From positions 32,001 through 96,000 of the forward strand of contig JBEKHC010000002.1 of assembly GCA_050012475.1 (NCBI GenBank): a stretch of DNA of 64,000 bases, given 5' to 3'. Both the position numbers and the translations under genes were made by a program. How positions within the stretch are numbered: the first letter of the stretch is position 1; every line of letters begins with the position of its first letter. Source of the stretch: Candidatus Velthaea sp. (GTDB taxonomy: Bacteria; Vulcanimicrobiota; Vulcanimicrobiia; Vulcanimicrobiales; Vulcanimicrobiaceae). This document shows positions 3,904 through 16,115 of the stretch, one piece after another. The notes beneath the pieces were generated by a model. That model was not told the origin of the DNA. It saw only the letters and a program-made list of their open reading frames with translations, and did no database searches.

Positions 3904-4081
3904 GATTCTGAGAAGTTAACCTCGGCTACGGCAAAAAAATGATTGCTGCGGGGTCGATTTACGACTTGGAAACCGATGTGCGGAGGCGGCAGATGCTTAT
4001 TCCTTTCGTGCAGGCCTTCCTGCCCGTTCCTCCCTTCACCATAGAACAGGCAACCGAGGATAACCGAGTTCGTTCGTTGTG

Positions 4082-4481
4082 TGTGCCTACGCAGCGCATC
4101 GTGCCCTGCGACCGACGTCCTCGGCCGGATATGGCTATCAGCGACTGAAAAGCGAACACGGTCCGCTTCTTTTCCATCAGTCCGGCGGTTGCTGTGACGG
4201 CAGTGCGCCGATGTGTCTTCGGGATAACGACTTCCGGGTCGGTTCACACGATGTGTTGCTGGGCGTCGTCGAGGGCTGTCCCTTTTACATCGGAGGCGCG
4301 CAGTTCAAAACCTGGGAGCATACGCAGCTCATCAGATGTCATCCCCGGTTCGGGCGATAGTTTCTCGATTGAAGTCTCAGGCGGGGCCCGGTTCATCACC
4401 GAGTCGCGCGTCCTCAGTGCTCTTGAACAGGTTGCTCAAGGCTGCCGGGCCGCCACAGACCGGGCCGGCGGCCGCATCTGA
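4082..4481 (+). pseudogene. DUF779-family protein, frameshifted
   Basis: HGPLLFHQSGGCCDGSAPMC...WEHTQLI lies in one frame and DVIPGSGDSFSIEVSGGARFITESRV in another (shift near 4333). The N-terminus also appears shifted near 4137. Confidence 0.75.
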
Positions 4482-4898
4482 GGAGCTTCGCGTGCAGCGA
4501 ACGTAACCTTCGGAGCGGTGGGTCGCCGTCGACATCCCACTGACGACTCACCGCGCTCCGTCTGCCGGCATTTTGGCTTTCGCGTTTCGCGCCCGCAGCG
4601 CAATGCGGTCGGTTAAAGACGGCCGGTCCGTGTTACGGACTCGGTCCAGCTCTGCCCCGCGTCGTTTGCGCGCCTTAACGCCTCGCAACGCGCCTCGTGA
4701 TGAGGTTCCGGAACGGCTATGCCCGGCGCGGTTAGAGCCCGAGGTCAGCCTGGATAGCGAAAGGCGCGTCCTATAGTGGCTATGGGTCGCGCCTGTTTGC
4801 TCAGAGTGTGGTGATTATTAGGTCCGTCCAGAATCGGTCACGTCACCCGTCGTTTTCGAGCACCTGCCGGACTGTATCAGAAAAGCGGACCGCGGCGG

Positions 4899-5207
4899 TT
4901 AGCGCGCTGCTACCGCTACCGGGCTCGAGCTAGAGTCTACCGCGGGCGACAAGACATCGGCGAGCTGGCTGGCAAACGCCTTTTGCTGGTCGAGCACTTG
5001 GGTCGCGAACGACGAATTGAGTTCAACAACCTGCGCGAGCGTCGGAAGGCCTTCGATCGTAGATCCGTTCGGCAGCTTCATCAACGAAGGCAAGCTGGCG
5101 GCAACTTCACGAACTGTTTGGAGCGTGGAGATCTGGACCGCTTCGATCTGTTTGACGTTGTCGAGTGTTTGAGTTTGGATTTTTTCGAGAATTTCGAGAT
5201 AGGTCAT
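4899..5207 (-). CDS. Hypothetical 102-aa helical protein (phasin-like amphipathic composition)
   Basis: Clean ATG-start ORF rich in Q/L/A helices (ELNSSFATQVLDQQKAFASQLA). Confidence 0.6.
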   Translation of the reverse strand: MTYLEILEKIQTQTLDNVKQIEAVQISTLQTVREVAASLPSLMKLPNGSTIEGLPTLAQVVELNSSFATQVLDQQKAFASQLADVLSPAVDSSSSPVAVAAR

Positions 5208-5364
5208 GTGCTAAGTATACCAAGCAGATGCAGTTTGTCAAGCGGCTTTGGTCGAAGGCGCGTCGCAGTGCGTCCAAGTGGGGATAACTCAACATTCGTT
5301 GCGCCCGCTGGGCCTTTCGCGATATGTCTTCCCACGGATGATCTATCGGCAGATCTGACACGCG

Positions 5365-5720
5365 TTGATCGGTGCTGGGAGACGCGTGCGCTTCACTCGC
5401 TGCAGCGACTTGGTGCAACGCCTTCAGGCTGCCCGGCGCGATCTGCGGCTGCCGCAAAGACTTGCCAAGCTCGATCGCTTCGATTTGATCATCCTGGACG
5501 ATCTGTCGTACGTGCGCCGCGATCAGGCCGAAACGGCGGTGCTCTTCGAGCTGATTTCCAAACGCCACGAGCGCAAGAGCATCGCGATTATGCCAATGCG
5601 CCCTTCTCGCAGTGGAGTGATGTCTTCGTCGATCCGGCGCCGACCTTGGCGGCAATCGATCGGCTCGTTCACCATGCGGCGATCCTCGAGATGAATGTGG
5701 AACGCTGTCGCCAGCTAAAA
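5365..5720 (+). pseudogene. istB: IS21-family IstB helper ATPase, 5'-truncated and frameshifted
   Basis: DLVQRLQAARRDL..LAKLDRFDLIILDDLSYVRRDQAETAVLFELISKRHERKSIAI, then after a shift near 5590, ANAPFSQWSDVFVDPAPTLAAIDRLVHHAAILEMN. Walker A and istA are absent. Confidence 0.85.
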
Positions 5721-5765
5721 ACAGGACCACAGGTCTTCGAGTGCGATGGCTCACCCCAGCACGAG

Positions 5766-6110
5766 CTACGTGAGCGGCGAAAGGTGCTTTGGTTCGTAAA
5801 GGCCGAGCTTGTCGCCGCCAGGGAGTTCGAGCGTCGTCACCAAACCCCAGCCGCGGTCGGCGAGCGGTGTCGTTTTGATTCCCTTCTTCTCGAGCTGTTG
5901 TACCGTCGCGGCGATGTCGCCGCAGATCAGCCACAGTTCGTGTTCGGGGTCGTCTTCGGTCTCATGGACGGCGAGTTCGGTCGGCGGTGCGGCGAAGAAG
6001 AGCCGCCCGTTGCCGGCGTCGACGTAGTGCAGGTCGAGCACGTCCTTGAGAAAGTCATACATCTCCTTGGCGTGCTTTGTGTAGAAGATCGCGTGGATAC
6101 CGGTGATCAC
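5766..6110 (-). CDS. VOC/glyoxalase-family protein
   Basis: MITGIHAIFY...FFAAPPTELAVH...HELWLICGDI...DRGWGLVTTLELPGGDKLGLYEP; RBS GAGGA upstream. Confidence 0.85.
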   Translation of the reverse strand: MITGIHAIFYTKHAKEMYDFLKDVLDLHYVDAGNGRLFFAAPPTELAVHETEDDPEHELWLICGDIAATVQQLEKKGIKTTPLADRGWGLVTTLELPGGDKLGLYEPKHLSPLT

Positions 6111-6122
6111 TCTGTTCCTCTT

Positions 6123-6200
6123 CCCTCGAACTACGCGCCTTCGCTGCGCTCCGCTCGGATGACATTACAACGGCGCTTCGCGCGCTCCGCTCGGGATGAC
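6123..6200 (-). repeat. Two tandem REP-like palindromes (GTCATCC(C)GAGCGGAGCG..GCGAAG on the minus strand)
   Basis: CTTCGCTGCGCTCCGCTCGGATGAC (ends 6163) and CTTCGCGCGCTCCGCTCGGGATGAC (ends 6200). Confidence 0.6.
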
Positions 6201-6229
6201 CATAGCGTAATTGAAAAACGCGCGGCGCC

Positions 6230-6454
6230 GCTGTGGACAGCGTGGCTGAGCTCCGCAAGCAGCAGTTAGCAACGAGCAAGGGGCTCATCCCCACCCTGCC
6301 CACAGCACCACTACTGCTGCTGCTTCTTCAAAGAAAGGACGAGGAACGGGACGGGCACTACCGCCTCATCTGAAAACCGCGACCTATACTGCTACCTGCT
6401 TCGCAGCGGCAAAGATAATTGACGCCGAGCGGTCGGGATAATTGTCGCCGAGCA
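6230..6454 (+). mobile_element. IS21-family right end: subterminal hairpin, tandem terminal repeats, CA terminus
   Basis: GATAATTGACGCCGAGC (6414-6430) and GATAATTGTCGCCGAGC-A (6437-6454) at a 23-bp period, ending in CA. A GCTGTGG...CCACAGC stem spans about 6230-6307. It lies downstream of the istB remnant. Confidence 0.65.
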
Positions 6455-6748
6455 CGTTTCGCACCGCCAACGATTCGCCGGTGTCGAGATCGACTACATC
6501 AATCGCGCCAAAGTGGCGGCCAAGATGTTACGTTTCGGGTCGGCGGCGAATCGACCGGGATACTCGTCGCCGACCGCGGCACCTTCGCGCCTTGCGTCCT
6601 AATCCGGCGCGAGTTCCCGACCGTCACCGACGCTTAGCCAATATCGCATTGAAAGCACTGGGAAGTGCAGGCCCCCTCCTAGCCAGGGACGCTCCGATGG
6701 AGCCCTGGACGTCGCCGCGATGCTCTAGCCAGCACGAAATCAGGCATA

Positions 6749-7030
6749 CTAGCCGAGGTAGCGGTGCACGAGCATCTGCCATTCTTCGTCGAGCGAGCAC
6801 GTCGGGAATGGTTCGCCGACGCGGCGGTACCAATAGCGCGCGTTCGCGGCATCGCCTTCTTTGCGATGCAGATACGCGTGCACGCGATTCGTTTCCGCGG
6901 TTTCGGGAGCTTGCGCGCGTTCGTGGGCCGCTTCCCATCGTCCGGCGCGGTCGAGCGCTAACGCCGCCAGTGCCGGCGCGAGACTGCGCGCCCGCTCGAC
7001 GTCGATCGCAAGAAACTCTTCGTACGTCAT
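6749..7030 (-). CDS. Conserved hypothetical protein
   Basis: WEAAHERAQ...VHAYLHRKEGDAANARYWYRR motif of a widespread small uncharacterised family. Confidence 0.8.
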   Translation of the reverse strand: MTYEEFLAIDVERARSLAPALAALALDRAGRWEAAHERAQAPETAETNRVHAYLHRKEGDAANARYWYRRVGEPFPTCSLDEEWQMLVHRYLG

Positions 7031-7237
7031 TACAGCTGTTGTTCTCCGGGGCGGATGTCAAGGTCGAACCGATAGCCGGGTAAGCGTCGCTGCGGCGCGT
7101 TCGGACACGAGCGCCGGTTGGGACGCTTTTCGGACGGCCGATCCGTACCATCGCAAAGGTGAGCTCGTTCCGAGCGATCGGGAGACCACTGCTGCTTCGA
7201 GCATTTCGAAGGACCCCTTTCGAGTGGAGTTTCAATT

Positions 7238-7519
7238 GTGAAGCGAACAACACTGGTATCGCTTGCGGCAACCTTACCCATTGCCGCGCTTGCGATCGGC
7301 AATGCCGTGGCGCAACCTCCGACGGCGGCGGCGACCGCTTTTGGCGCCTCGGTCCCCGCGAAGGTGAGTTATATTCCCCCAGTCATTGGGCCCGTTCGCG
7401 ACTACGTGATCATCATCATCACGACGGCGTGGGGCCGCGTGGTGGGCGATATCCCGTACGCATCGACGGGCATCAAAGCCGCGAGCCCGAGCGACGCGGC
7501 AAAATCCCTGGACGGTTGA
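7238..7519 (+). CDS. Secreted 93-aa putative precursor peptide (SdpC-like role)
   Basis: GTG start with GGAG RBS; Sec-type signal peptide (MKRTTLVSLAA...AVA|Q); hydrophobic core YIPPVIGPVRDYVIIIITTAWGRVVG; located directly upstream of the sdpA/sdpB-like genes. Confidence 0.7.
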   Translation: MKRTTLVSLAATLPIAALAIGNAVAQPPTAAATAFGASVPAKVSYIPPVIGPVRDYVIIIITTAWGRVVGDIPYASTGIKAASPSDAAKSLDG

Positions 7520-7524
7520 GCAGC

Positions 7525-7555
7525 AGGCGTGAAGTCCGCGTACGGCTTCACGCCT
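7525..7555 (+). terminator. Stem-loop after the precursor gene (attenuator or mRNA stabiliser, no U-tract)
   Basis: AGGCGTGAAG (7525-7534) pairs perfectly with CTTCACGCCT (7546-7555). Confidence 0.55.
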
Positions 7556-7618
7556 CGCCGCTGCGCCGGCGCACGTCATGAATGCCTTGATGCCGTCTGA
7601 ACGGCGAGGACTTTTCGC

Positions 7619-8272
7619 ATGGACAACACCGACGTTGCTTCGCCTCGAGAGCGCCTGGCGCTCGCGGCTTTCGCGCTCGTTCTCGCCGCCGTCCTCGCCG
7701 TTCACGCGGGGTTCGAGACCCTCTTCGTTCTGCCGTCGAACCCGATCGGCGAACGGCTGCGGCCGCTGGTACTCGCGTACACGCACCCGTACTTCGAGCA
7801 GTATTGGAACATGTTTGCGCCGGCGCCCATCGCGAGCGACATCATCGTGCTCGCGCGGACGCGAGACGCGGCGGGTGCCCAGAGCGCGTGGGTCAGTCTG
7901 ACCGATCCGCTCATCGACAAGGTGCGCGCAAATCCGCTCTCACGCTACTCGACGCTGAAGAACGTCGCCATGACGCTGGGCCTCGCCGCCCTGGCCGACA
8001 AGACGCTCATCAAGGGGAAACTCACCCGCGCTCAGCTTCGGACGCTCATGGAACCCAAGACGCGGCCGATGTTTTTCGACGGCCTGCTGCGCCTCGCGGT
8101 CTTTCTGCGGGCCGGCGAAGGCACCGACGTCCGCAGCATGCAGATCCAAATCATCGATCACGAGTTTCCGCGCTTTAGCCATCGATTCGAGCGCGACGAC
8201 GTTCGCTTGAACAACCACGCGATGATCCTGCCCTGGGTACCGGTTTCTGGAACGGACGGAAGCACATCATGA
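7619..8272 (+). CDS. SdpA-like / DUF5819 family membrane-anchored protein
   Basis: N-terminal TM helix, then LPSNPI...YTHPYFEQYWNMFAPAP, the SdpA/DUF5819 signature (P.F.Q.W..FAP.P); C-terminal LPW. Confidence 0.8.
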   Translation: MDNTDVASPRERLALAAFALVLAAVLAVHAGFETLFVLPSNPIGERLRPLVLAYTHPYFEQYWNMFAPAPIASDIIVLARTRDAAGAQSAWVSLTDPLIDKVRANPLSRYSTLKNVAMTLGLAALADKTLIKGKLTRAQLRTLMEPKTRPMFFDGLLRLAVFLRAGEGTDVRSMQIQIIDHEFPRFSHRFERDDVRLNNHAMILPWVPVSGTDGSTS

Positions 8273-9300
8273 GACCAGGCGTTATCGCGGCGCAGGTCGT
8301 GCCGCTCGTGGATCGCGTCTTCGCGCGCCTCACGATCCCGCATCGGCAGATCGGTGCCAGCGTGTTCCGGCTCGTGTTGGGCAGCACGATCGCACTGCTC
8401 TATTTGCAAAACCTCGGTTGGCGGCGGTTTCTCTGGGGTCCGCACGGGTTGATCCCGTTCACGCACGCCGCGCAAATCGTCGCGGCATACGGGCCCAATC
8501 TGTACTTGGCGTCGCCGTCAGCGTGGTTCTTCGAGGCCGTGTTCTGGACGGGACTGGTGGCATCGATTGCGTTCGCTTGCGGGCGCTGGATCCCGGTCTC
8601 GACGCTGCTGTGCGCCGTGCTGACCTGGTGCCTCATTTACCGCGATGGTTTTCTAGGTGACGCTGGTTGGAATTTGGCGACCATCCTGCTCGTGTATGCG
8701 CTCGTGCTCGATTGCGGGCGCTATCTCGTCGCCGGAAAGTCCGGCGCTGCGCTGGTGCCGAGCGCCCGGCCGAATTTCCACTCGCGCGCCGCCGCGCTGC
8801 TGCACAACTTCGGCATCACGCTGGCGATCTGGCAAGTGAGCCTGCTCTACGGTACCTCGTGCTTTTACAAGATTACCGGGCACAAGTGGCAAGACGGAAC
8901 GGCGCTCTACTACATTCTGCGCAGCAATCAGTTCAATCTGTCTCCGCTGGGGCCGCATATCTACCACAGTGCCGCGCTGGTGTGCATTGCAACGTATGCG
9001 ACGCTGCTGCTGCAGGCGGCATTCCCATTCTGCATTTGGCAGCGCCCGGCCAAGTACGTCGTCGCCCTGGGGGCGATCGGCTTCCACGTCGGCATCGCCG
9101 TTACGATGGGGCTGCCGTTTTTCTCCCTCGTCATGATTTCGTGCGAAGCGCTCGTCTTTTCGGATGCGGAATATCGCCTGGCGGTCGGCGCGTTGCGCGC
9201 AGTCGGGCAGCGGTGTGACGCCGTTCGCGGTCGACTGTCGTTTGCCGGCGCACGGGCGGCGGCTGCCGCGGCCCTGCCGTCGGTACAGGATGGACGGTGA
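8269..9300 (+). CDS. SdpB-like HTTM-domain membrane protein
   Basis: Multi-TM protein with FRLVLG, DAGWN, QVSLLYGTSCFYKITGHKWQDGTALYY, FHVGIAVTMGLPFFSLVMI; ATGA overlap with the upstream gene. Confidence 0.85.
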   Translation: MRPGVIAAQVVPLVDRVFARLTIPHRQIGASVFRLVLGSTIALLYLQNLGWRRFLWGPHGLIPFTHAAQIVAAYGPNLYLASPSAWFFEAVFWTGLVASIAFACGRWIPVSTLLCAVLTWCLIYRDGFLGDAGWNLATILLVYALVLDCGRYLVAGKSGAALVPSARPNFHSRAAALLHNFGITLAIWQVSLLYGTSCFYKITGHKWQDGTALYYILRSNQFNLSPLGPHIYHSAALVCIATYATLLLQAAFPFCIWQRPAKYVVALGAIGFHVGIAVTMGLPFFSLVMISCEALVFSDAEYRLAVGALRAVGQRCDAVRGRLSFAGARAAAAAALPSVQDGR

Positions 9301-12300
9301 TGCCGGCCGATGCGTTGCGGCGGCGAATAAGCGCGGCGGCTTTGGCGGCCGGGCTGCTGACGATCCTCATCGCGGGCATGACGATCGCGCCGGTGCGCGC
9401 TGAGAGCGGCGCCCAGCTGACCGTTCGCGTGATCGATCAGACATCGAAGCGGGGCCTTGCGCTGGCCCGCGTGATCCTCACGGGGCCCGTGCAGCGGCTC
9501 GGTTTCACCGATGACAACGGGTCGATCGCTTTTACCGATTTGCGCTCGGGCGTGTATCGGCTCGTTGCCGCCGCTGCCGGCTACCAATCCCAGACGTCGA
9601 GCATCACCGTCGCGCCGGATGCCGCTGTTAGCGCGGTCGCCGGACTCGCTGCGGCGGGCGCGCTCAAGACGATCGGCCGAGTCAGCGTACGTGAGAAGCG
9701 AAGCCTCGAAGTCGCCGACTTTGGTTCCGACGGCGCGATTCGGCGCACGCACGACTCGCTCGACGATGCGCTGCGGTTCGACCCGGCAGCGAGCGTCGGA
9801 CCGAACGGCGCGCTCGCGATCGCCGGCCAGCCAACGACCTCGGCCGGCGTGACGCTCGACGGGATACCGCTGGCGCAATCCGGTCTCGACCTGCGGCGGC
9901 TGGGCGCAGACCTCTTTTCTTCGCTGAGCGTGACACCGGGACCGGCAAACGGTGCGATCGCGGGCAACGTCGACTTGCGTCCGTTCGATCCGACGCTGCT
10001 GTTCCGCTCGGCGCTCACCACGCAATACGCAAGCGACGGCAGCAATCGATTCGCGACCGTTCTGAGCGGGACCAGCGGCAACGTCGGATACGCGCTCAGC
10101 GCGGCCCGTTCGCTGACGAGCGGACCACTCGACGGTCAGCGTTTTTTCGATGCCAGCGGCAGCGATTTCGTTCACGCGGATCGGACCTGGTCCGACGGCA
10201 TGCTGGCCAAGCTGCGGCTCGGGCTCACACCGTCTTCGAACCTCATGTTCACCGCGCTGCACACGACGACGCGGGCCACCGAAAGCTGCGCGCTCTTGAA
10301 TGACACGCTGCCATGCACGTACGGACCGGGCGCATCGCAGACCAGCAGCTTGGATGTTGCCGGCCTGACGTTCACGGGAGTCTACGGCAAGCTTTCGCTG
10401 ACGGCGACGCCCTACGTGAATCGCCGGCGCGAAGATCTCGCGTACCCGAACCAGATCGAGGCTGGTCTTGCGGCGCCGCAGAGCGGCTCGGTTGAAGCGT
10501 CGGCGGCCGGTGCCCGCTTTGCCGCCGACTTGGTCGGATCGAATGCCGTCGACTATCATCTCAGCGGGCTCGTCTCGCGATCGTCGCTGGTTTCGCAAGC
10601 CGTCGCGGTCGACTCAAATCTCGATTGGCAAGCCGATCACACCTACGACGATATCGCCGTCGGCGCCAGCGCGAAGCTGCGCCCGGGGCTGACCATCGCA
10701 CCGAATCTGCGCTTCACCCAAACCGACGCGACGCCGCACCTCGGGGCCGATGTCACCGTCCATTGGAAGCCGGCGCGCGACGATGCGGTCAATCTGGCGT
10801 ACGTGCCGCGCGCCTACGGTCTCGCAAATACGATTCCGCAGGCATTTTCTGCTCCGTCGGCGCTCGACTTCGACTGCGCCGACCACACGGCGATCGCACA
10901 CGCGGCGGGCGTATCGGCGGACGAGCCCGCGACGAGCGTGCTGCGCGTCAACTGGACGCACGAGCACCGGGCGACGAAAACGGTCGTTTCGGCCTTTCGC
11001 ACCAAACAAGTCAACGCGGTCGTCCCGACCTTCGTGAACCTCACGGGGCTCGCGACGAACCTCATTCCAGCCGGTTTTCTGGGCGCAGCGAACGCTGCGT
11101 TCACGTCGCCGTTCGCTTGTCCGGGCGCACCGCCGCTCTCCGCGTCCGACATTGCGGTGGCCGAGCCGGCAGTGCTCCCGGCGCAGACCACGCTGGGCGC
11201 TTCGATCGGCGAAGCCTTTCAACTCAATTCGTCGCTCGTCGTGATCCCAAGCTACAGCGCGACATACGCGCGCGCCGATCAAGTCGGCCCGCAATTCGCT
11301 GTGCCGCGGTCGGTGGTGACGGCCGGGCAGCAATTGCCCGGCGTGCCGATGCATCAGTGGTCGCTGCTCGCCGACTACAAGCGTCCCGGAAGCCGCCTGG
11401 AAGCCATTGCGTCGGTGACGCACACCGCGGCCAACAACGCGTATTTTCTCCCCGCCTACACGCTGATCGGAGCCGGCCTGAGCCTGCCGCTCGGCGCGGC
11501 CGATCTCCTGATCAGCGGTACGAATCTCACCAACGCGTTCGGCGGCGCATTTGCTTCGCCGGCGCTGGGTGTGCCGCTGGCCGTCAATCGCGGTGCGCCG
11601 CTGGCGGTGCCGGGATATCCGCTGCCGGGCCGGCGGATTGCGGTGGCCGTCCGTTTCGCCGTTGGAAGTTCCGCGCTGCGCGCCGGCGAGACCATCGCAC
11701 CGCTCACGACGCCGGCGGACGACGGCACGGTTCGGCGCTTCGATCTGTATTCGCTCCCCCAAACGCAGCCCAGCACGCCGGGCGTCGACGTCGACCCGGC
11801 CGCCCCGTCGTGCGTTCCCGAATCGCTTCGCGATGCACGCCGCATTTTGCATGCGATCGGCGCGTATACGGCGCGGCTCGCTGTCGCGGACCGGCGTGCC
11901 GCCGGGCCGTTCCCGCACATCGACGGCGTGACGATGACGCGTCACGATCTCGGCGATAGTTACGAACTGCGCTTCACCATGGACCCCCGCGCCACGCTGG
12001 CAGTGGCGCGCTGCGGCGCATTCACGTACGCCAACCGCGACCAAGCAACGCAAGTGGGATTGGAAGACCGTTTCGATCTCGCAAGTTGGCAACTCGATTT
12101 TCGCTACGCCCGGCAATTCGGATTGTTTCTCGTCGAGCGGCCCGAGAGCGTCGTTGCCCACGCGGTCCGCTCGGCGCTGCCCGCCGCGCCGCCGTCCGAT
12201 CCGTTCGCGACCGTCACCGGGGCGCAATGCCGGCCGGACCAAACGCCGGTCGCACGTGCGCTGCTGACGCGGCTGCGCGCCGGAATCGAGAGCACCCAAG

Positions 12301-12539
12301 CTTCCGACCCGGCTTTCACCATCGCGCGGCACGCGGCCGGCGCCGAGTCCTGGTACTCGGTGGAACTGCACGATCCACTGCTCGTGCAGCCGCTGCTGAA
12401 TTGCGCTGCGGTGGCATCGGCGTCGCGCGACGAACTGCGCCGCCGCGGCATCGACGGTGCAGCCTTGCCCGCCGTCAACTATGCGCAGCGCGTCGGCTGG
12501 TACGTCGTAGCGCATCCTACCGCAGGAGAAGGACAATGA
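9297..12539 (+). CDS. TonB-dependent-receptor-like outer-membrane protein with carboxypeptidase-regulatory-like N-domain and duplicated C-terminal extension
   Basis: Signal peptide; FTDDNGSIAFTDLRSGVYRLVAAAAGY (CarboxypepD_reg-like); LKTIGRV; plug-like VTLDGIPL...AIAGNVDL; amphipathic beta-strands ending PGRRIAVAVRF; GTGA overlap with the upstream gene. Confidence 0.75.
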   Translation: MMPADALRRRISAAALAAGLLTILIAGMTIAPVRAESGAQLTVRVIDQTSKRGLALARVILTGPVQRLGFTDDNGSIAFTDLRSGVYRLVAAAAGYQSQTSSITVAPDAAVSAVAGLAAAGALKTIGRVSVREKRSLEVADFGSDGAIRRTHDSLDDALRFDPAASVGPNGALAIAGQPTTSAGVTLDGIPLAQSGLDLRRLGADLFSSLSVTPGPANGAIAGNVDLRPFDPTLLFRSALTTQYASDGSNRFATVLSGTSGNVGYALSAARSLTSGPLDGQRFFDASGSDFVHADRTWSDGMLAKLRLGLTPSSNLMFTALHTTTRATESCALLNDTLPCTYGPGASQTSSLDVAGLTFTGVYGKLSLTATPYVNRRREDLAYPNQIEAGLAAPQSGSVEASAAGARFAADLVGSNAVDYHLSGLVSRSSLVSQAVAVDSNLDWQADHTYDDIAVGASAKLRPGLTIAPNLRFTQTDATPHLGADVTVHWKPARDDAVNLAYVPRAYGLANTIPQAFSAPSALDFDCADHTAIAHAAGVSADEPATSVLRVNWTHEHRATKTVVSAFRTKQVNAVVPTFVNLTGLATNLIPAGFLGAANAAFTSPFACPGAPPLSASDIAVAEPAVLPAQTTLGASIGEAFQLNSSLVVIPSYSATYARADQVGPQFAVPRSVVTAGQQLPGVPMHQWSLLADYKRPGSRLEAIASVTHTAANNAYFLPAYTLIGAGLSLPLGAADLLISGTNLTNAFGGAFASPALGVPLAVNRGAPLAVPGYPLPGRRIAVAVRFAVGSSALRAGETIAPLTTPADDGTVRRFDLYSLPQTQPSTPGVDVDPAAPSCVPESLRDARRILHAIGAYTARLAVADRRAAGPFPHIDGVTMTRHDLGDSYELRFTMDPRATLAVARCGAFTYANRDQATQVGLEDRFDLASWQLDFRYARQFGLFLVERPESVVAHAVRSALPAAPPSDPFATVTGAQCRPDQTPVARALLTRLRAGIESTQASDPAFTIARHAAGAESWYSVELHDPLLVQPLLNCAAVASASRDELRRRGIDGAALPAVNYAQRVGWYVVAHPTAGEGQ

Positions 12540-12967
12540 CGACCGACGCGTCCGCGGTGCTGATTTTCGATGCCGACTGTGGTTTGTGCGCGCGCTTCGT
12601 TGGCGGTGATCTCGTGCGCGCCGCGCGCATTCGCGCGGCCGGCTATCAGTCGATTGCGCGCGACCCTGCCGTCGTGCGCACGTTGCACGAGCACGGCCTC
12701 GACGTCGAACGCTGCGCCACCGCGATGGTGCTCGTCGCCAACGGCCGGGTGTGGGTCGGCGCGCGTGCGTTCAACGCACTTCTCGCCCGGGCCGGCGGGT
12801 GGCGTGCGTTGGCTGCCAGGCTGCTCGGGTGCCCGCTCCTGTTTCCCTTCGAGCTGTTCGCTTACCGGATCATCGCGGCCAATCGGCGCCGGATTTCAGG
12901 TTGGATCGGCGCACCGGTTTGTCTGCGCTCATGTCACGCACCGTTCGACACCCAAGGAGAGTCATAG
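12536..12967 (+). CDS. DCC-family (DUF393) thiol-disulfide oxidoreductase
   Basis: True start is the ATG at 12536 (ATGA overlap, RBS GGAGAAGGA): MTTDASAVLIFDADCGLCARFV (DxxCxxC)...AYRIIAANRRRIS. Confidence 0.85.
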   Translation: MTTDASAVLIFDADCGLCARFVGGDLVRAARIRAAGYQSIARDPAVVRTLHEHGLDVERCATAMVLVANGRVWVGARAFNALLARAGGWRALAARLLGCPLLFPFELFAYRIIAANRRRISGWIGAPVCLRSCHAPFDTQGES

Positions 12968-12968
12968 C

Positions 12969-13379
12969 ATGTTCGCAATCGCCCTATCCGTTCTACTCGC
13001 CGCGCTCGAGCCGCAGGCCGTCACCCCGCAAACCGGACCAAGCCCGTCCGCGGCGGTGTCGCCGCCGGTCGACGATCCCCAGATTGCCGCGCGGGTGAAA
13101 GCGGAGTTCGTCGCGTGGCAGCAAGGCGCCATCGATCGGTCGTTGTATTCGCCGGCGTTCGGCGACCCCACCGACATGGTCGAGGCGATGAGCGCTCAGC
13201 TCAAGGGGCTCGGCCCGCTGCTTTCCACGACGGCTCGCTCGAGTTTGCGTCGGCAGGGCAGCACCATCTACGTCTACTCGCTGCGGTGCCGGAACGGAAA
13301 CGTCAAGATGCAGCTGGGGCTCGATGCGCGTGGAAAAATATCGGCAATTTCGTTCGAGCCTGAGGCCCCGCCGGCATAG
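12969..13379 (+). CDS. Small secreted protein (DUF3887-like alpha/beta domain)
   Basis: ATG at 12969 with AAGGAG RBS; signal-like N-terminus, Pro/Ser linker, then WQQGAIDRSLYS...LKGLGPL...YVYSLRC...GLDARGKISAISF. Confidence 0.65.
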   Translation: MFAIALSVLLAALEPQAVTPQTGPSPSAAVSPPVDDPQIAARVKAEFVAWQQGAIDRSLYSPAFGDPTDMVEAMSAQLKGLGPLLSTTARSSLRRQGSTIYVYSLRCRNGNVKMQLGLDARGKISAISFEPEAPPA

Positions 13380-13384
13380 CAGCA

Positions 13385-13533
13385 GGGTTCAGCGCTTCGC
13401 GACGAGCCGCGCGTGGCGTTTGCGGCTCCGCCGCGAGCCGCGGTGGCGTTCGGCGCTGCAGGCCGACCGCGCGTGGCGTTTGCGGCTTCGCCGCAAGCCG
13501 CCGCCTTCGCGTTTGGGCTTCGCCCAAGCCCCA
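13385..13533. repeat. Array of about five ~30-bp hairpin units (BIME/REP-like) between convergent genes
   Basis: CCGCGCGTGGCGTTTGCGGCT(C/T)CGCCGC(G/A)AGCCG at 13407-13440 and 13467-13500, plus related GCGTT-stem-CTTCG-stem-AGCC units. Confidence 0.65.
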
Positions 13534-13542
13534 AGTCGCCGT

Positions 13543-15027
13543 TCAGGAACGCCGTTCGGGGCGCGCGTGGCGGAAGCCGTACAAGAAGTAAATCGCCAGG
13601 CCGATGATGAGCCAAACCACGAAACGCCACCAGGTGAATTGACCGAGGCCGACCGTGGAGAGAAAGAGCGAAAGCGCGATGCCGCACAGCGGAAAGAGCG
13701 GAACGAACGGTGAGCGGAACGGGCGCTCGAGTTCCGGCCGGCGGTAGCGGAGAAAAATTACGCCGGCACACACGATGATGAACGCGCTGAAGGTTCCGAT
13801 GTTGACCAGCTCGAGCAATGCGTCGAGCGGGACGATCAAGGTCAGCAGCGCGACGACGATGCCGGTGAGCATCGTCATGCGAACCGGTGTTTTGAAACGC
13901 GGATTGACGGCGGCGACGAACGGCGGGAGCATCCCGTCGCGCGCCATGACGTAGAAGATACGCGTCTGGCCGAGCAGCGAGGTCAAAGCGACGCTCGTCG
14001 TCCCGGTCAACACGCCGATCGTGATGATCCACGTGATGAGCGGATTGTGCAGCGGGGCCAGCGCCGCGACGAGCGCATTGTTTTGATCGACCTTCTGCCA
14101 GGGGACGATGGCGACGAGCACGATCGCTACCGTGCAGTAGATCAGCGTTCCGATGACGAGCGAGCCGAGCACGCCCACCGGGACGTCGCGGCTGGGATTG
14201 CCGCATTCCTCGGCGGTCGTCGTTGCCGCGTCGAAACCGATGTACGTGAAGAACACCAGCGCCGCCGCCGGAACGATGCCGTTCCCGCTCGCGCCGAAAG
14301 CGATCCGGCCCCAACCCAGCGGCGAGAACGGGTGCAGGTAGCTGGGATGAATGAGGCTCAGCCCGGCGATCACGAACACGGCGAGCGCGCCGATCTTGAG
14401 AATGACGAGCGCGTTGTTCGAGGTCGCGGTCTCACGGATGCCCAGCGAGAGTAGAACGGACAGGAGGAGCACGAACGCGCCGCCGATGAGATCGTACTGC
14501 GAATGCGCGAGGTCCCATTGCCCCACCGCCCACCAGGGACCGTGGGACACGAACTGCGCCTGCTGCAGCGCTTTGGGCAGCACGAACCCGAACGAACTCA
14601 ACGCGCTCTGAAGCGAGCCCGAAAACTGCTGCGCGACCGGCGCGGCGCTGATGCCGTATTCGAGGATCAAATCCCAGCCGATGATCCACGCGACGACTTG
14701 TCCGAGTGTCGCATAGGCATACGTATACGCGCTGCCGGCGATCGGGACCATCGAGCCCAGTTCCGCGTAGCACAGTGCGGCGAACATCGAAGCCAGCCCG
14801 GCCAGGAGAAACGAGATGATGATCGCCGGACCCGCTTTCGCCACGCCGGGGCCGATCGTGGTGAAGATTCCGCCGCCGATCATCGTGCCGAGGCCGATTG
14901 CGATCAGGTCGCGGCCGTTCAGCGCCCGGCGCAGCTGCATGCGCTGGCCGTCTTCGCGCAGCTGCTCGATCGACGCGGTTGCAAACAGTCGAGCTGCGAG
15001 ACTTGCCGGACGTGGCGTGATGGCCAT
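13543..15027 (-). CDS. Amino acid permease (APC superfamily, cationic amino acid transporter-like)
   Basis: GLGTMIGGGIF, YAELGSMVPIAGSAYTY, FFTYIGFD, RIFYVMARDGMLP; likely start MAITPRP at 15027. Confidence 0.92.
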   Translation of the reverse strand: MAITPRPASLAARLFATASIEQLREDGQRMQLRRALNGRDLIAIGLGTMIGGGIFTTIGPGVAKAGPAIIISFLLAGLASMFAALCYAELGSMVPIAGSAYTYAYATLGQVVAWIIGWDLILEYGISAAPVAQQFSGSLQSALSSFGFVLPKALQQAQFVSHGPWWAVGQWDLAHSQYDLIGGAFVLLLSVLLSLGIRETATSNNALVILKIGALAVFVIAGLSLIHPSYLHPFSPLGWGRIAFGASGNGIVPAAALVFFTYIGFDAATTTAEECGNPSRDVPVGVLGSLVIGTLIYCTVAIVLVAIVPWQKVDQNNALVAALAPLHNPLITWIITIGVLTGTTSVALTSLLGQTRIFYVMARDGMLPPFVAAVNPRFKTPVRMTMLTGIVVALLTLIVPLDALLELVNIGTFSAFIIVCAGVIFLRYRRPELERPFRSPFVPLFPLCGIALSLFLSTVGLGQFTWWRFVVWLIIGLAIYFLYGFRHARPERRS

Positions 15028-15398
15028 GGATTGGCGATGTTTGCCCGTTCGCGGCGCTGGTCCTAGTGGGCTGCGCTGAAGCCGAGGGCATGGGCGAATG
15101 CTCGCTTCGGCCCGCAATCGTGGCCCGAGCGTCCGGTGCATGCGCGCGGCTGAAGCATGAAACGTGCATCGGAACGGGGTTCATTCGCCAACAACGTTTT
15201 CGTCGCGCGCGGCTTAGCCGCGATCTGCCGTGGCTGCGGTCTTTTGGGAAACGGCGTGCGCCGTTCGGTATTGCCGATGGCGGCGCCGGCCGTTGGTAGC
15301 CGATTGTAGCTTCGGCTACGTTCGCGCGCGGCGAGTTGCCGCCACGGCGTCGGTGTGTTACGGTTACGGCGAATTACACTCTCGTTGAGGAAGGAACT

Positions 15399-16115
15399 AT
15401 GCGCCTTTCACCAACTGCGATCATCGTCGCATTTGCCGCCGTCGTGCTTTCGAGCGGCGTTTCGTCCGCCGCGACGGTGACCATCGACGGCGCGCCCGTA
15501 ACCGGGACGATCCTCCACGAAGGCCACCTGATGGTCCCGTTTCGCGCGCCGATGCAGCAGATCGGTGCGACCGTCGTTTGGACGGATAAAGTTAAAACCG
15601 GCGTGGCGAGCGCGCAGGGACACGAACTCATCCGCACGGCAATCGGCTCGAAGACCGTCGTCATCAAAGGCGCGCCGAAAGTCATCACCGTGGCGCCCGC
15701 ACTCATCGAGCCGCAGCATCTCGAGTACATTCCGGTCGAAATTTTGCCGCAGATCTCGCGCGCGAAACTGACGTTCTCGCCGGACCGCAAATCGGCCGTC
15801 ATCACCAACTTCGATCTCGGTGGCGTGGCAGCGGCAGCAGCAGCTGCAGCCGCCGTTGTCGCTGCGGCCGCACCGGCTCCCACCGCGGCGGCGACAGCAG
15901 CACCGGCTCCCGTCGCCGCGGCTCCCGTCGTTGCGGCACCGGTTGGCGAACCCGTCGTGACGGACGCTTCGGGCTTCCCCAGTGTCGATCCGGACGGCAA
16001 GATCTTGCTGGTCTGGGTCTGGCTGCTGCCGATCAGCGCAGCGGTCGCGGGGTTCGCGTACTTTGCCGTCATCGGACAAGTCGAACGCAAGGGCCGTCGT
16101 AACCGCACCTTCTAA
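15399..16115 (+). CDS. Copper amine oxidase N-terminal (stalk) domain protein with Ala/Pro linker and C-terminal TM anchor
   Basis: RBS GAGGAAGGA; signal peptide; GHLMVPFRAPMQQIGATVVW; poly-Ala/Pro linker; TM helix followed by a basic tail (RKGRRNRTF). Confidence 0.75.
   Translation: MRLSPTAIIVAFAAVVLSSGVSSAATVTIDGAPVTGTILHEGHLMVPFRAPMQQIGATVVWTDKVKTGVASAQGHELIRTAIGSKTVVIKGAPKVITVAPALIEPQHLEYIPVEILPQISRAKLTFSPDRKSAVITNFDLGGVAAAAAAAAAVVAAAAPAPTAAATAAPAPVAAAPVVAAPVGEPVVTDASGFPSVDPDGKILLVWVWLLPISAAVAGFAYFAVIGQVERKGRRNRTF

Follow-up and report, generated by a model that had tools for sequence, protein, structure and literature searches.

A predicted DUF5819-HTTM operon for maturation of a RiPP-type peptide in Candidatus Velthaea

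To what end would a bacterium encode a small secreted protein ahead of a two-subunit membrane enzyme, an outer-membrane barrel and a redox protein? The question is raised by six genes in a 64,000-nucleotide stretch of Candidatus Velthaea sp. (assembly GCA_050012475.1, contig JBEKHC010000002.1, positions 32,001 to 96,000 of the forward strand; 'the window' means this whole stretch), a soil bacterium whose genome assembly is 94% complete. An initial annotation had taken them for an Sdp-like system that modifies a peptide and then exports or displays it through the barrel. Our analysis supports a RiPP-like operon (RiPP, ribosomally synthesised and post-translationally modified peptide) with a secreted precursor and an HTTM maturation pair, and assigns the pair to a sister family of SdpAB, DUF5819-HTTM; the fuller reading, of a RiPP-type peptide maturation operon of this family in which a menaquinol-derived base acts on the peptide core, we regard as about evenly poised between right and wrong. 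The features are as follows.

7224..7231, + strand, ribosome-binding site GGAG, 5' of the precursor gene (conserved spacing)
7238..7519, + strand, gene 1, putative precursor peptide of 93 amino acids (open reading frame call)
7526..7557, + strand, stable hairpin just 3' of the precursor stop (z -3.2)
7619..8272, + strand, gene 2, DUF5819 protein of 217 amino acids, a LinL/SdpA-like small subunit (PF19136, 72 bits)
8269..9300, + strand, gene 3, HTTM membrane enzyme of 343 amino acids, LinG/SdpB-like (model with the GGCX transmembrane fold)
9297..12539, + strand, gene 4, TonB-dependent-transporter-like outer-membrane barrel of 1080 amino acids (CarboxypepD_reg, model, homologue)
12536..12967, + strand, gene 5, DCC1-like protein of 143 amino acids with DxxCxxC (PF04134, 46.8 bits)
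12969..13379, + strand, gene 6, small secreted protein of 136 amino acids (similarity to the C-terminal domain of a peptidase in genome G044)

A putative Sec-exported precursor beside a recurring enzyme pair

We found that gene 1 encodes a peptide with a Sec-type signal that spans about residues 1-25 and closes with AVA; after a spacer come a Val/Ile/Thr-rich core, at about residues 55-63, and a C-terminal follower that ends in LD plus one residue. Judged from sequence, this leader-core-follower arrangement is that of a RiPP precursor carrying a recognition sequence behind the core. Homologues 40-47% identical occur at a second copy of the system in the same genome (contig C116) and in G017, G441 and L010; Pfam and NCBIfam gave no match for the precursor, nor for any of 13 related precursors tested. 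In all six aligned loci the ribosome-binding site, GGAG or GGGG, keeps a constant spacing to the start, and the hairpin behind the precursor recurs with differing stem sequences in four related loci, three of them at z -3.8 to -4.5 and the remaining one at -1.9; it is probably a stabiliser or partial terminator, which would favour precursor over enzyme mRNA. The peptide contains PxxxGP and an 89% identical variant contains PxxxTP, the leader cleavage motif of linaridins (PMC9927463; this and the other papers cited were available to us as passages), while the other five aligned precursors have neither. Glu carboxylation of this precursor was rejected as a candidate modification, the peptide having no Glu, and so was a disulfide made by the DCC protein, the peptide having no Cys and the DCC protein no export signal.

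The follower is not peculiar to this locus. A signal-bearing open reading frame ending in [FL]D(x0-4) adjoins the pair in 12/22 loci of the phylum and 24/35 loci of other phyla (36/57 together), the latter drawn from Bacillota, Actinomycetota, Myxococcota, Armatimonadota, Acidobacteriota and one proteobacterial metagenome-assembled genome, by a filter that missed at least three precursors seen otherwise (L005, L200, L203). Seven tandem precursors in G384 (L026:9529-11859) share leader and follower around unrelated cores, which makes them the best natural library for enzyme testing, and a Bacillus plasmid carries three in tandem. A DUF5819-HTTM pair stands on either side of the G384 set, and two peptidases and a DCC gene come next. 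One clade of Streptomyces loci (L076, L079-L117) has an extra insert in the HTTM protein and no adjoining tail-bearing precursor, and on a Streptomyces plasmid (L165:3195-7204) an ice-binding family protein occupies the place of the short precursor, followed by DUF5819, HTTM and DUF393 genes.

Co-conservation, on which the initial annotation had staked its proposal, was found, in that other genomes also combine the pair with a precursor, with a DCC gene or with a barrel; the six genes are nevertheless not a conserved unit, as barrel, DCC and last gene are exchangeable accessories. The full order was seen in only two metagenome contigs, about 91% identical (86-97% protein identity, one cut inside the precursor), which are one lineage; the metagenome scan queried a single protein and returned four loci. 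The C116 copy has precursor, DUF5819, HTTM, DCC and gene 6 at 40-64% identity and no barrel. DUF5819 occurs in 13/401 genomes of the phylum and 0/14 control genomes, and the HTTM profile hits at least 18/348 genomes of the family at E ≤ 1e-30 (a tally that includes the unpublished G234, used only in that count). Within 7 kb of the HTTM gene in 24 stretches of the phylum, 18 of them with a downstream flank of 6 kb or more, we counted Yip1-like genes in 8, DCC genes in 6 (plus one fusion), beta-lactamase-family peptidases in 5, B12 radical S-adenosylmethionine (SAM) genes of TIGR03975 type in 4, gene 6 homologues in 3 and a barrel of the family in 2, both barrel cases lying among the 18. TIGR03975-type enzymes methylate Val and Ile of peptides like the polytheonamides, D-residues are preferred by some peptidases of the beta-lactamase family, and a Yip1 protein protects against SDP. 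Gene content thus points to DUF5819 plus HTTM as the invariant unit, usually with a precursor, the rest being a changing accessory set; and the neighbours typical of RiPP tailoring (radical SAM enzymes, peptidases, and JmjC with a 2-oxoglutarate-Fe(II) enzyme in G211) support the reading that the pair modifies a peptide.

The DUF5819-HTTM pair and its relatives

The initial annotation had labelled genes 2 and 3 SdpA and SdpB. The homology to SdpB and a relationship of the small subunits stood; the labels themselves did not, since both Sdp models fail their cut-offs and the proteins belong to the sister family. Gene 2 is a DUF5819 protein (PF19136, 72 bits against a cut-off of 27) with one N-terminal membrane helix and the motif F-x-Q-x-W-x-x-F-A-P. 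It gives no match to the SdpA family (TIGR04034, PF17418), whereas a true SdpA used as control matches PF17418 at 122 bits; all 48 aligned gene 2 homologues are DUF5819, and 4/48 match TIGR04034 weakly (best E 0.021). The DUF5819 profile scores the LinL-like protein of one plasmid cluster, assigned to the linaridins by architecture, at 31.2 bits (E 7e-11; maximum of 300 shuffles 3.0) and Bacillus SdpA at 12.9 bits (shuffles at most 2.3). Profile sequence search returned no solved structural relative of DUF5819, and its match to the GGCX clamp rests on a preprint (10.64898/2026.08.19.745780).

Gene 3 has no Pfam HTTM match and stays below the cut-off of the SdpB model TIGR04033 (42.3 bits against 178.4), which nonetheless matches all 49 aligned HTTM rows (best E 3.3e-26), so that the two are homologous. 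Its structural model (mean predicted local distance difference test score, pLDDT, 90) retrieved 14 Foldseek matches at E ≤ 0.001, all of them GGCX (template modelling score 0.55-0.58), and the HTTM profile detects human GGCX at E 5.7e-14. The same profile scores Bacillus SdpB at 85 bits and the LinH-like protein at 48.7 bits (E 2e-16), with K, W, H and F kept in the latter. Two genomes (G398 and G450, loci L205 and L206) also carry more distant HTTM genes, preceded by a partner outside DUF5819 that has an FF(A/S)P motif and by a small secreted protein; they are possibly a further subfamily.

Residues of GGCX were mapped by hand from one profile alignment and the columns counted over the 49 HTTM rows. 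K218 (K201 here), W223 (W207) and H287 (H273) are each conserved in 49/49 rows, F299 (F285) in 48/49 and F286 (F272) in 34/49; the Glu-binding N159 and H160 become A132 and G133, in columns that hold A/G/S and Gly in 49/49 rows. In GGCX, K218 and W223 serve vitamin K deprotonation, F286 forms the quinone floor, F299 handles CO2 and N159/H160 the Glu carboxylate (PMC12647623). Since K, W, H and F are conserved and N159/H160 replaced, the base-generating half of the site appears to be kept and the Glu-holding half lost. Eight membrane helices were counted in the HTTM model, a count from which we infer that K201 faces outside and the C-terminus inside; the latter fits the signal-less DCC protein, which is fused to that end in relatives. 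Genes for futalosine menaquinone synthesis, VKOR, TonB and ExbB are present in the host.

How does the pair relate to known systems? Sequence comparison indicates that DUF5819-HTTM is sister both to the linaridin LinL/LinG pair and to SdpAB. LinG (the HTTM part of LinH/CypH) with LinL is a homologous two-subunit membrane enzyme, sharing K, W, H and F in the HTTM protein, FSQ..W.FFAP in the small subunit and Thr/Val/Ile-rich cores in the substrates. The operon differs from linaridin clusters in having no LinE hydrolase (Pfam and NCBIfam give no hydrolase match for any of the six genes), LinM methyltransferase or LinT ABC exporter, in a precursor with a Sec signal and a C-terminal follower, and in the additional barrel, DCC protein and last gene. 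Linaridin clusters are nearly all actinobacterial, and LinE/G/L have been tied to dehydration (10.1101/2020.07.09.196543, the latter also PMC9927463); type A linaridins contain D-residues, with LinL (grmL, sinL) the proposed epimerase (PMC10373908, PMC9811515).

With SdpABC and YitPOM of B. subtilis the operon shares an SdpB-homologous HTTM protein, a Sec-exported precursor with a hydrophobic core and a partner with a related W-x-x-F motif; it differs in precursor length (93 amino acids against about 200), in the order precursor-A-B and in having no SdpI or SdpR. The SdpC family model (TIGR04032) matches neither gene 1, nor the 13 related precursors, nor anything in the genome, and does match the B. 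subtilis control. Because the Sdp models fail their cut-offs and DUF5819 is nearer LinL than SdpA, we do not regard the locus as SdpABC proper. Human GGCX and Streptomyces MloH have the same transmembrane fold and quinone-site residues; GGCX is a single protein, and here the enzyme is split over two genes and the Glu-binding residues, D263, K217 and N290 are replaced. A further relative is the Melghirimyces pair of DUF5819 and HTTM-DCC1, modelled as a split GGCX and likened to MloH, which carboxylates an Asp alpha-carbon (10.64898/2026.08.19.745780): it has the same protein families, DCC included, and the same split-GGCX model, and the passages of the preprint available to us propose carboxylation and mention no substrate, precursor, linaridins or barrel. 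DUF5819 was named in one paper among the literature searched, a search that covered neither supplements nor most subscription journals and made no query by phylum name, and in which precursors, follower and barrel-linked form were not described; some of the loci could already be covered by custom linaridin profiles and supplementary cluster tables.

Barrel, DCC protein and last gene

Gene 4 had been called a TonB-dependent receptor, which holds for plug and barrel in the model, although the Plug domain match lies below cut-off (CarboxypepD_reg lies above). It comprises a signal, CarboxypepD_reg, plug, a barrel to about residue 790 and two tandem Cys-bearing domains, 26% alike; evidence for the barrel comes from the model and from a homologue of 45% identity, and P0124 passes both the Plug and the barrel cut-offs. 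The model (mean pLDDT 62) matches PfeA and Cir at Foldseek E 1e-17, with BtuB among the tied top structural matches (Z 15.1, root-mean-square deviation 4.0, 279 aligned). The C-terminal domains gave no Atlas match, and the structure search barely probed them; C-termini of TonB-dependent transporters face the periplasm. Import is the rule for such transporters, and precedents for secretion are very few. Export of the peptide and its uptake or sensing are equally tentative here, each short of an even chance, and cargo unrelated to the peptide is slightly less likely again. By domain content Oar of Myxococcus xanthus shares CarboxypepD_reg, plug and barrel, unlike the window's family lacking the two extra C-terminal domains, and secretion of a protein is on record for an Oar-type transporter whose N-terminal domain is the same (PMC6434023).

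The barrel family is near-core in the phylum (238/401 genomes, including eight unpublished genomes used in that count only), and across the class it usually follows a two-component system; of 16 copies inspected by eye, 12 sit at a response-regulator/kinase locus or directly behind one. The host's ordinary copy is on contig C50, and the operon copy is 27-30% identical to ordinary copies; its subclade occurs in 2/348 genomes of the family, this one (G000) and G441 of another genus. In G441 the precursor, DUF5819 and HTTM genes share a contig with the beginning of a radical SAM gene, and a second contig has the remainder of a gene of that kind together with DUF5825 and the barrel; because the 537 bases common to both are 95% identical, the contigs would be strain or paralogue copies and the link of operon and barrel is indirect. 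P0013 (HTTM) and P0124 (barrel) are tied solely by having the same longest contig, of 40,573 bases. Identities of HTTM and barrel are congruent, at 66% and 64% between G441 and P0013/P0124 and 49% and 43% between G441 and the window. In G211 a precursor, the pair, JmjC, DCC and 2-oxoglutarate-Fe(II) genes are followed 3 kb on by a separate, divergent barrel of the family. A tree from a quick method, which has long branches and lacks a clade test, groups the window barrel with P0123 and P0124 (100) apart from the G211 barrel, a weak hint of separate recruitments in the two lineages. Among 43 further GTDB loci, other diderms included, a search limited to the window's barrel family found no member. 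A 907-amino-acid match beside a Kofleriaceae locus was not counted, having, by eye, repeats of the N-terminal domain and no barrel. Elsewhere in the host (C22:34474-39796), a shorter relative of 771 amino acids closes a nitroreductase/CPBP protease/ABC permease-like cluster (labels by eye), a second instance of the barrel family beside RiPP-like genes; and in G087 (L153:4352-9475) a second divergent copy follows a lower-GC stretch, with no DUF5819-HTTM pair in view and a small Cys-rich, secreted-looking open reading frame at 4352-4660.

Gene 5 is a DCC protein (PF04134, 46.8 bits against a cut-off of 27.8; motif D12xxC15xxC18) and, having neither signal nor membrane helix, is probably cytoplasmic. 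It had been noted as foreign to the Bacillus sdp locus in a diderm; DCC is no novelty of diderms, being fused to or adjoining HTTM in Bacillota as well, and is fused to the HTTM C-terminus in relatives P0007 and L007. Gene 6, with no Pfam or NCBIfam match, resembles the C-terminal domain of a beta-lactamase-family peptidase behind HTTM in G044 (26% over 100 amino acids, pairwise E 2e-6); its Atlas matches are unnamed clusters at 0.91-0.92 and, as a lead only, DUF3887 at 0.84. We consider it a candidate periplasmic peptide-binding or self-protection protein.

The layout itself was as first described: six co-oriented genes, all + strand open reading frames, with junctions ATGA at 8269, GTGA at 9297, ATGA at 12536 and a 1-bp gap before 12969. 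The stored barrel protein begins one codon later, at 9300, and 99 bp separate precursor and DUF5819 gene. Neither a sigma-70 promoter nor a clear terminator was found at the locus, and Rfam models gave zero matches in 4000-16000. Two RNA runs of one study contain 5-6% of the sequence words, with low-depth contigs of at least 99% identity only on 7179-7421, 7491-7770, 9484-9709 and 9711-9883; as DNA carry-over is possible, these are no evidence of expression. To the left lie an IS21 istB fragment and small genes (5365-5694 and 5766-7030); the 91% identical contig L008 aligns only from 7085 on, has a different, uvrA-like gene upstream and shares the amino-acid permease on the right. Between gene 6 and this convergent permease, four imperfect 30-bp tandem repeats (13403-13524) are probably a repetitive extragenic palindromic (REP)-like element, as related short matches occur in unrelated contigs. 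The C116 copy has immediately upstream (L005:9834-14221, - strand) another possible RiPP or modification cluster, which encodes a squalene-cyclase-like protein, an M50 metalloprotease with a weak resemblance to the daptide HExxH protease (83 bits against a cut-off of 300) and two unknown proteins.

Rival readings and what the family may mean

From the observed gene set, folds, residue conservation, precursor architecture and co-occurrence we infer the following course. The precursor would be made in excess and exported via Sec, and its [FL]D follower would dock on the outward-facing DUF5819-HTTM complex, a split vitamin-K carboxylase. With O2, Lys201 would turn menaquinol into a strong base that abstracts alpha-protons from the backbone of the Val/Ile/Thr-rich core. 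The outcome would be D-residues and/or dehydrobutyrine, as linaridins have, and not carboxylated Glu; loss of the alpha-proton would be the step common to carboxylation (MloH), epimerisation and dehydration. [quoted passage not shown]

Several points weigh against this reading. Product, activity and modification are predictions, and no peptidase is encoded in the six-gene operon. GGCX D263, K217 and N290 are replaced by Q249, Y200 and I276, and the quinone chemistry itself may therefore be altered. The linaridin comparison depends on one uncharacterised cluster, and SDP, a product of the sister pair, is described, in the passages available, only as a processed 42-residue fragment (PMC6818787). 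The [FL]D tail marks 44/101 signal-like open reading frames next to the pair against 9/670 farther away, but the motif was defined on the loci counted and kin are not independent; the filter left 21/57 related loci without a precursor. None of 38 loci of the Streptomyces clade has a tail-bearing precursor, so the pair can serve other substrates. Finally, the barrel is missing from 16/18 loci of the phylum with at least 6 kb of flank, including the host's second copy.

Processing of the SDP kind, in which the pair cleaves, folds or releases an unmodified hydrophobic antibacterial peptide for the barrel to export or display, strikes us as fairly unlikely: invariant quinone-activating Lys, Trp and His are hard to square with plain proteolysis, separate peptidases often adjoin the pair, the small subunit is nearer LinL than SdpA, and the core is much shorter than the 42-residue SDP. 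It draws support from the profile's higher score for SdpB than for LinH (85 against 49 bits), from the need for SdpAB in SdpC processing (PMC6818787), from Sec signals that the precursors share with SdpC and not with linaridin precursors, and from the Yip1-like genes of 8/24 loci. We doubt still more that the enzyme is a true carboxylase, adding CO2 in a menaquinol-dependent manner to Asp (as MloH does) or Glu of the peptide or another exported protein, as suggested for DUF5819-HTTM (10.64898/2026.08.19.745780). The GGCX fold and the CO2-stacking Phe are kept and several cores, e.g. in G355 and G211, have acidic residues; yet F285 is also kept in SdpB and the LinH-like protein, N159/H160 are lost in every row, and the precursor has no Glu, and where it has Asp ahead of the core its two closest relatives have N or S.

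The remaining doubts concern single components. It is somewhat unlikely that the barrel is unconnected with peptide transport, either a passenger or a cofactor importer (e.g. of cobalamin for the B12 radical SAM enzymes of sister clusters). Cobalamin uptake would fit G441, where the barrel sits behind radical SAM and DUF5825 genes, as well as the BtuB match, and the family's near-core place behind two-component systems and the many loci without a barrel point the same way; but the window has no radical SAM gene and its barrel is translationally coupled, G211 too has a barrel without radical SAM, and barrel and HTTM diverge congruently across three loci. By sequence the barrel is repeatedly tied to the operon and dispensable for most copies. 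Very improbable, in our judgement, is a structural or regulatory periplasmic role for the small protein with the pair as a general envelope redox system: the precursor-less Streptomyces clade and the plasmid locus with its ice-binding protein would suit it, but a conserved leader and follower enclose hypervariable cores, precursors stand in tandem (seven in G384, three on the Bacillus plasmid), a hairpin follows the stop and RiPP tailoring enzymes lie nearby.

What would the peptide-modifying reading mean for the family? SdpAB, LinG/LinL and DUF5819-HTTM are placed in one split-GGCX family, which bears on how SdpAB acts on SdpC and by what route the linaridin pair makes D-residues and dehydrobutyrine, and the short natural substrates with their leader-core-follower layout make the chemistry testable with three genes. 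An unlikely but wider possibility is an unrecognised, cross-phylum RiPP class, in which a menaquinol-driven split GGCX would recognise Sec-exported precursors by their [FL]D follower and epimerise them on the outer side of the inner membrane; sister clusters would add B12 C-methylation, and the short, D-residue-rich, beta-branched peptides that result would, in this lineage, be secreted by a dedicated barrel together with a capture domain in the periplasm. Because epimerisation leaves mass unchanged, products of this kind would have escaped notice; if the class is real, linaridin enzymes would use vitamin-K chemistry and mass-silent D-residues may occur in SDP. For the passage of peptides through a TonB-type transporter, the barrel-linked subfamily is a test case.

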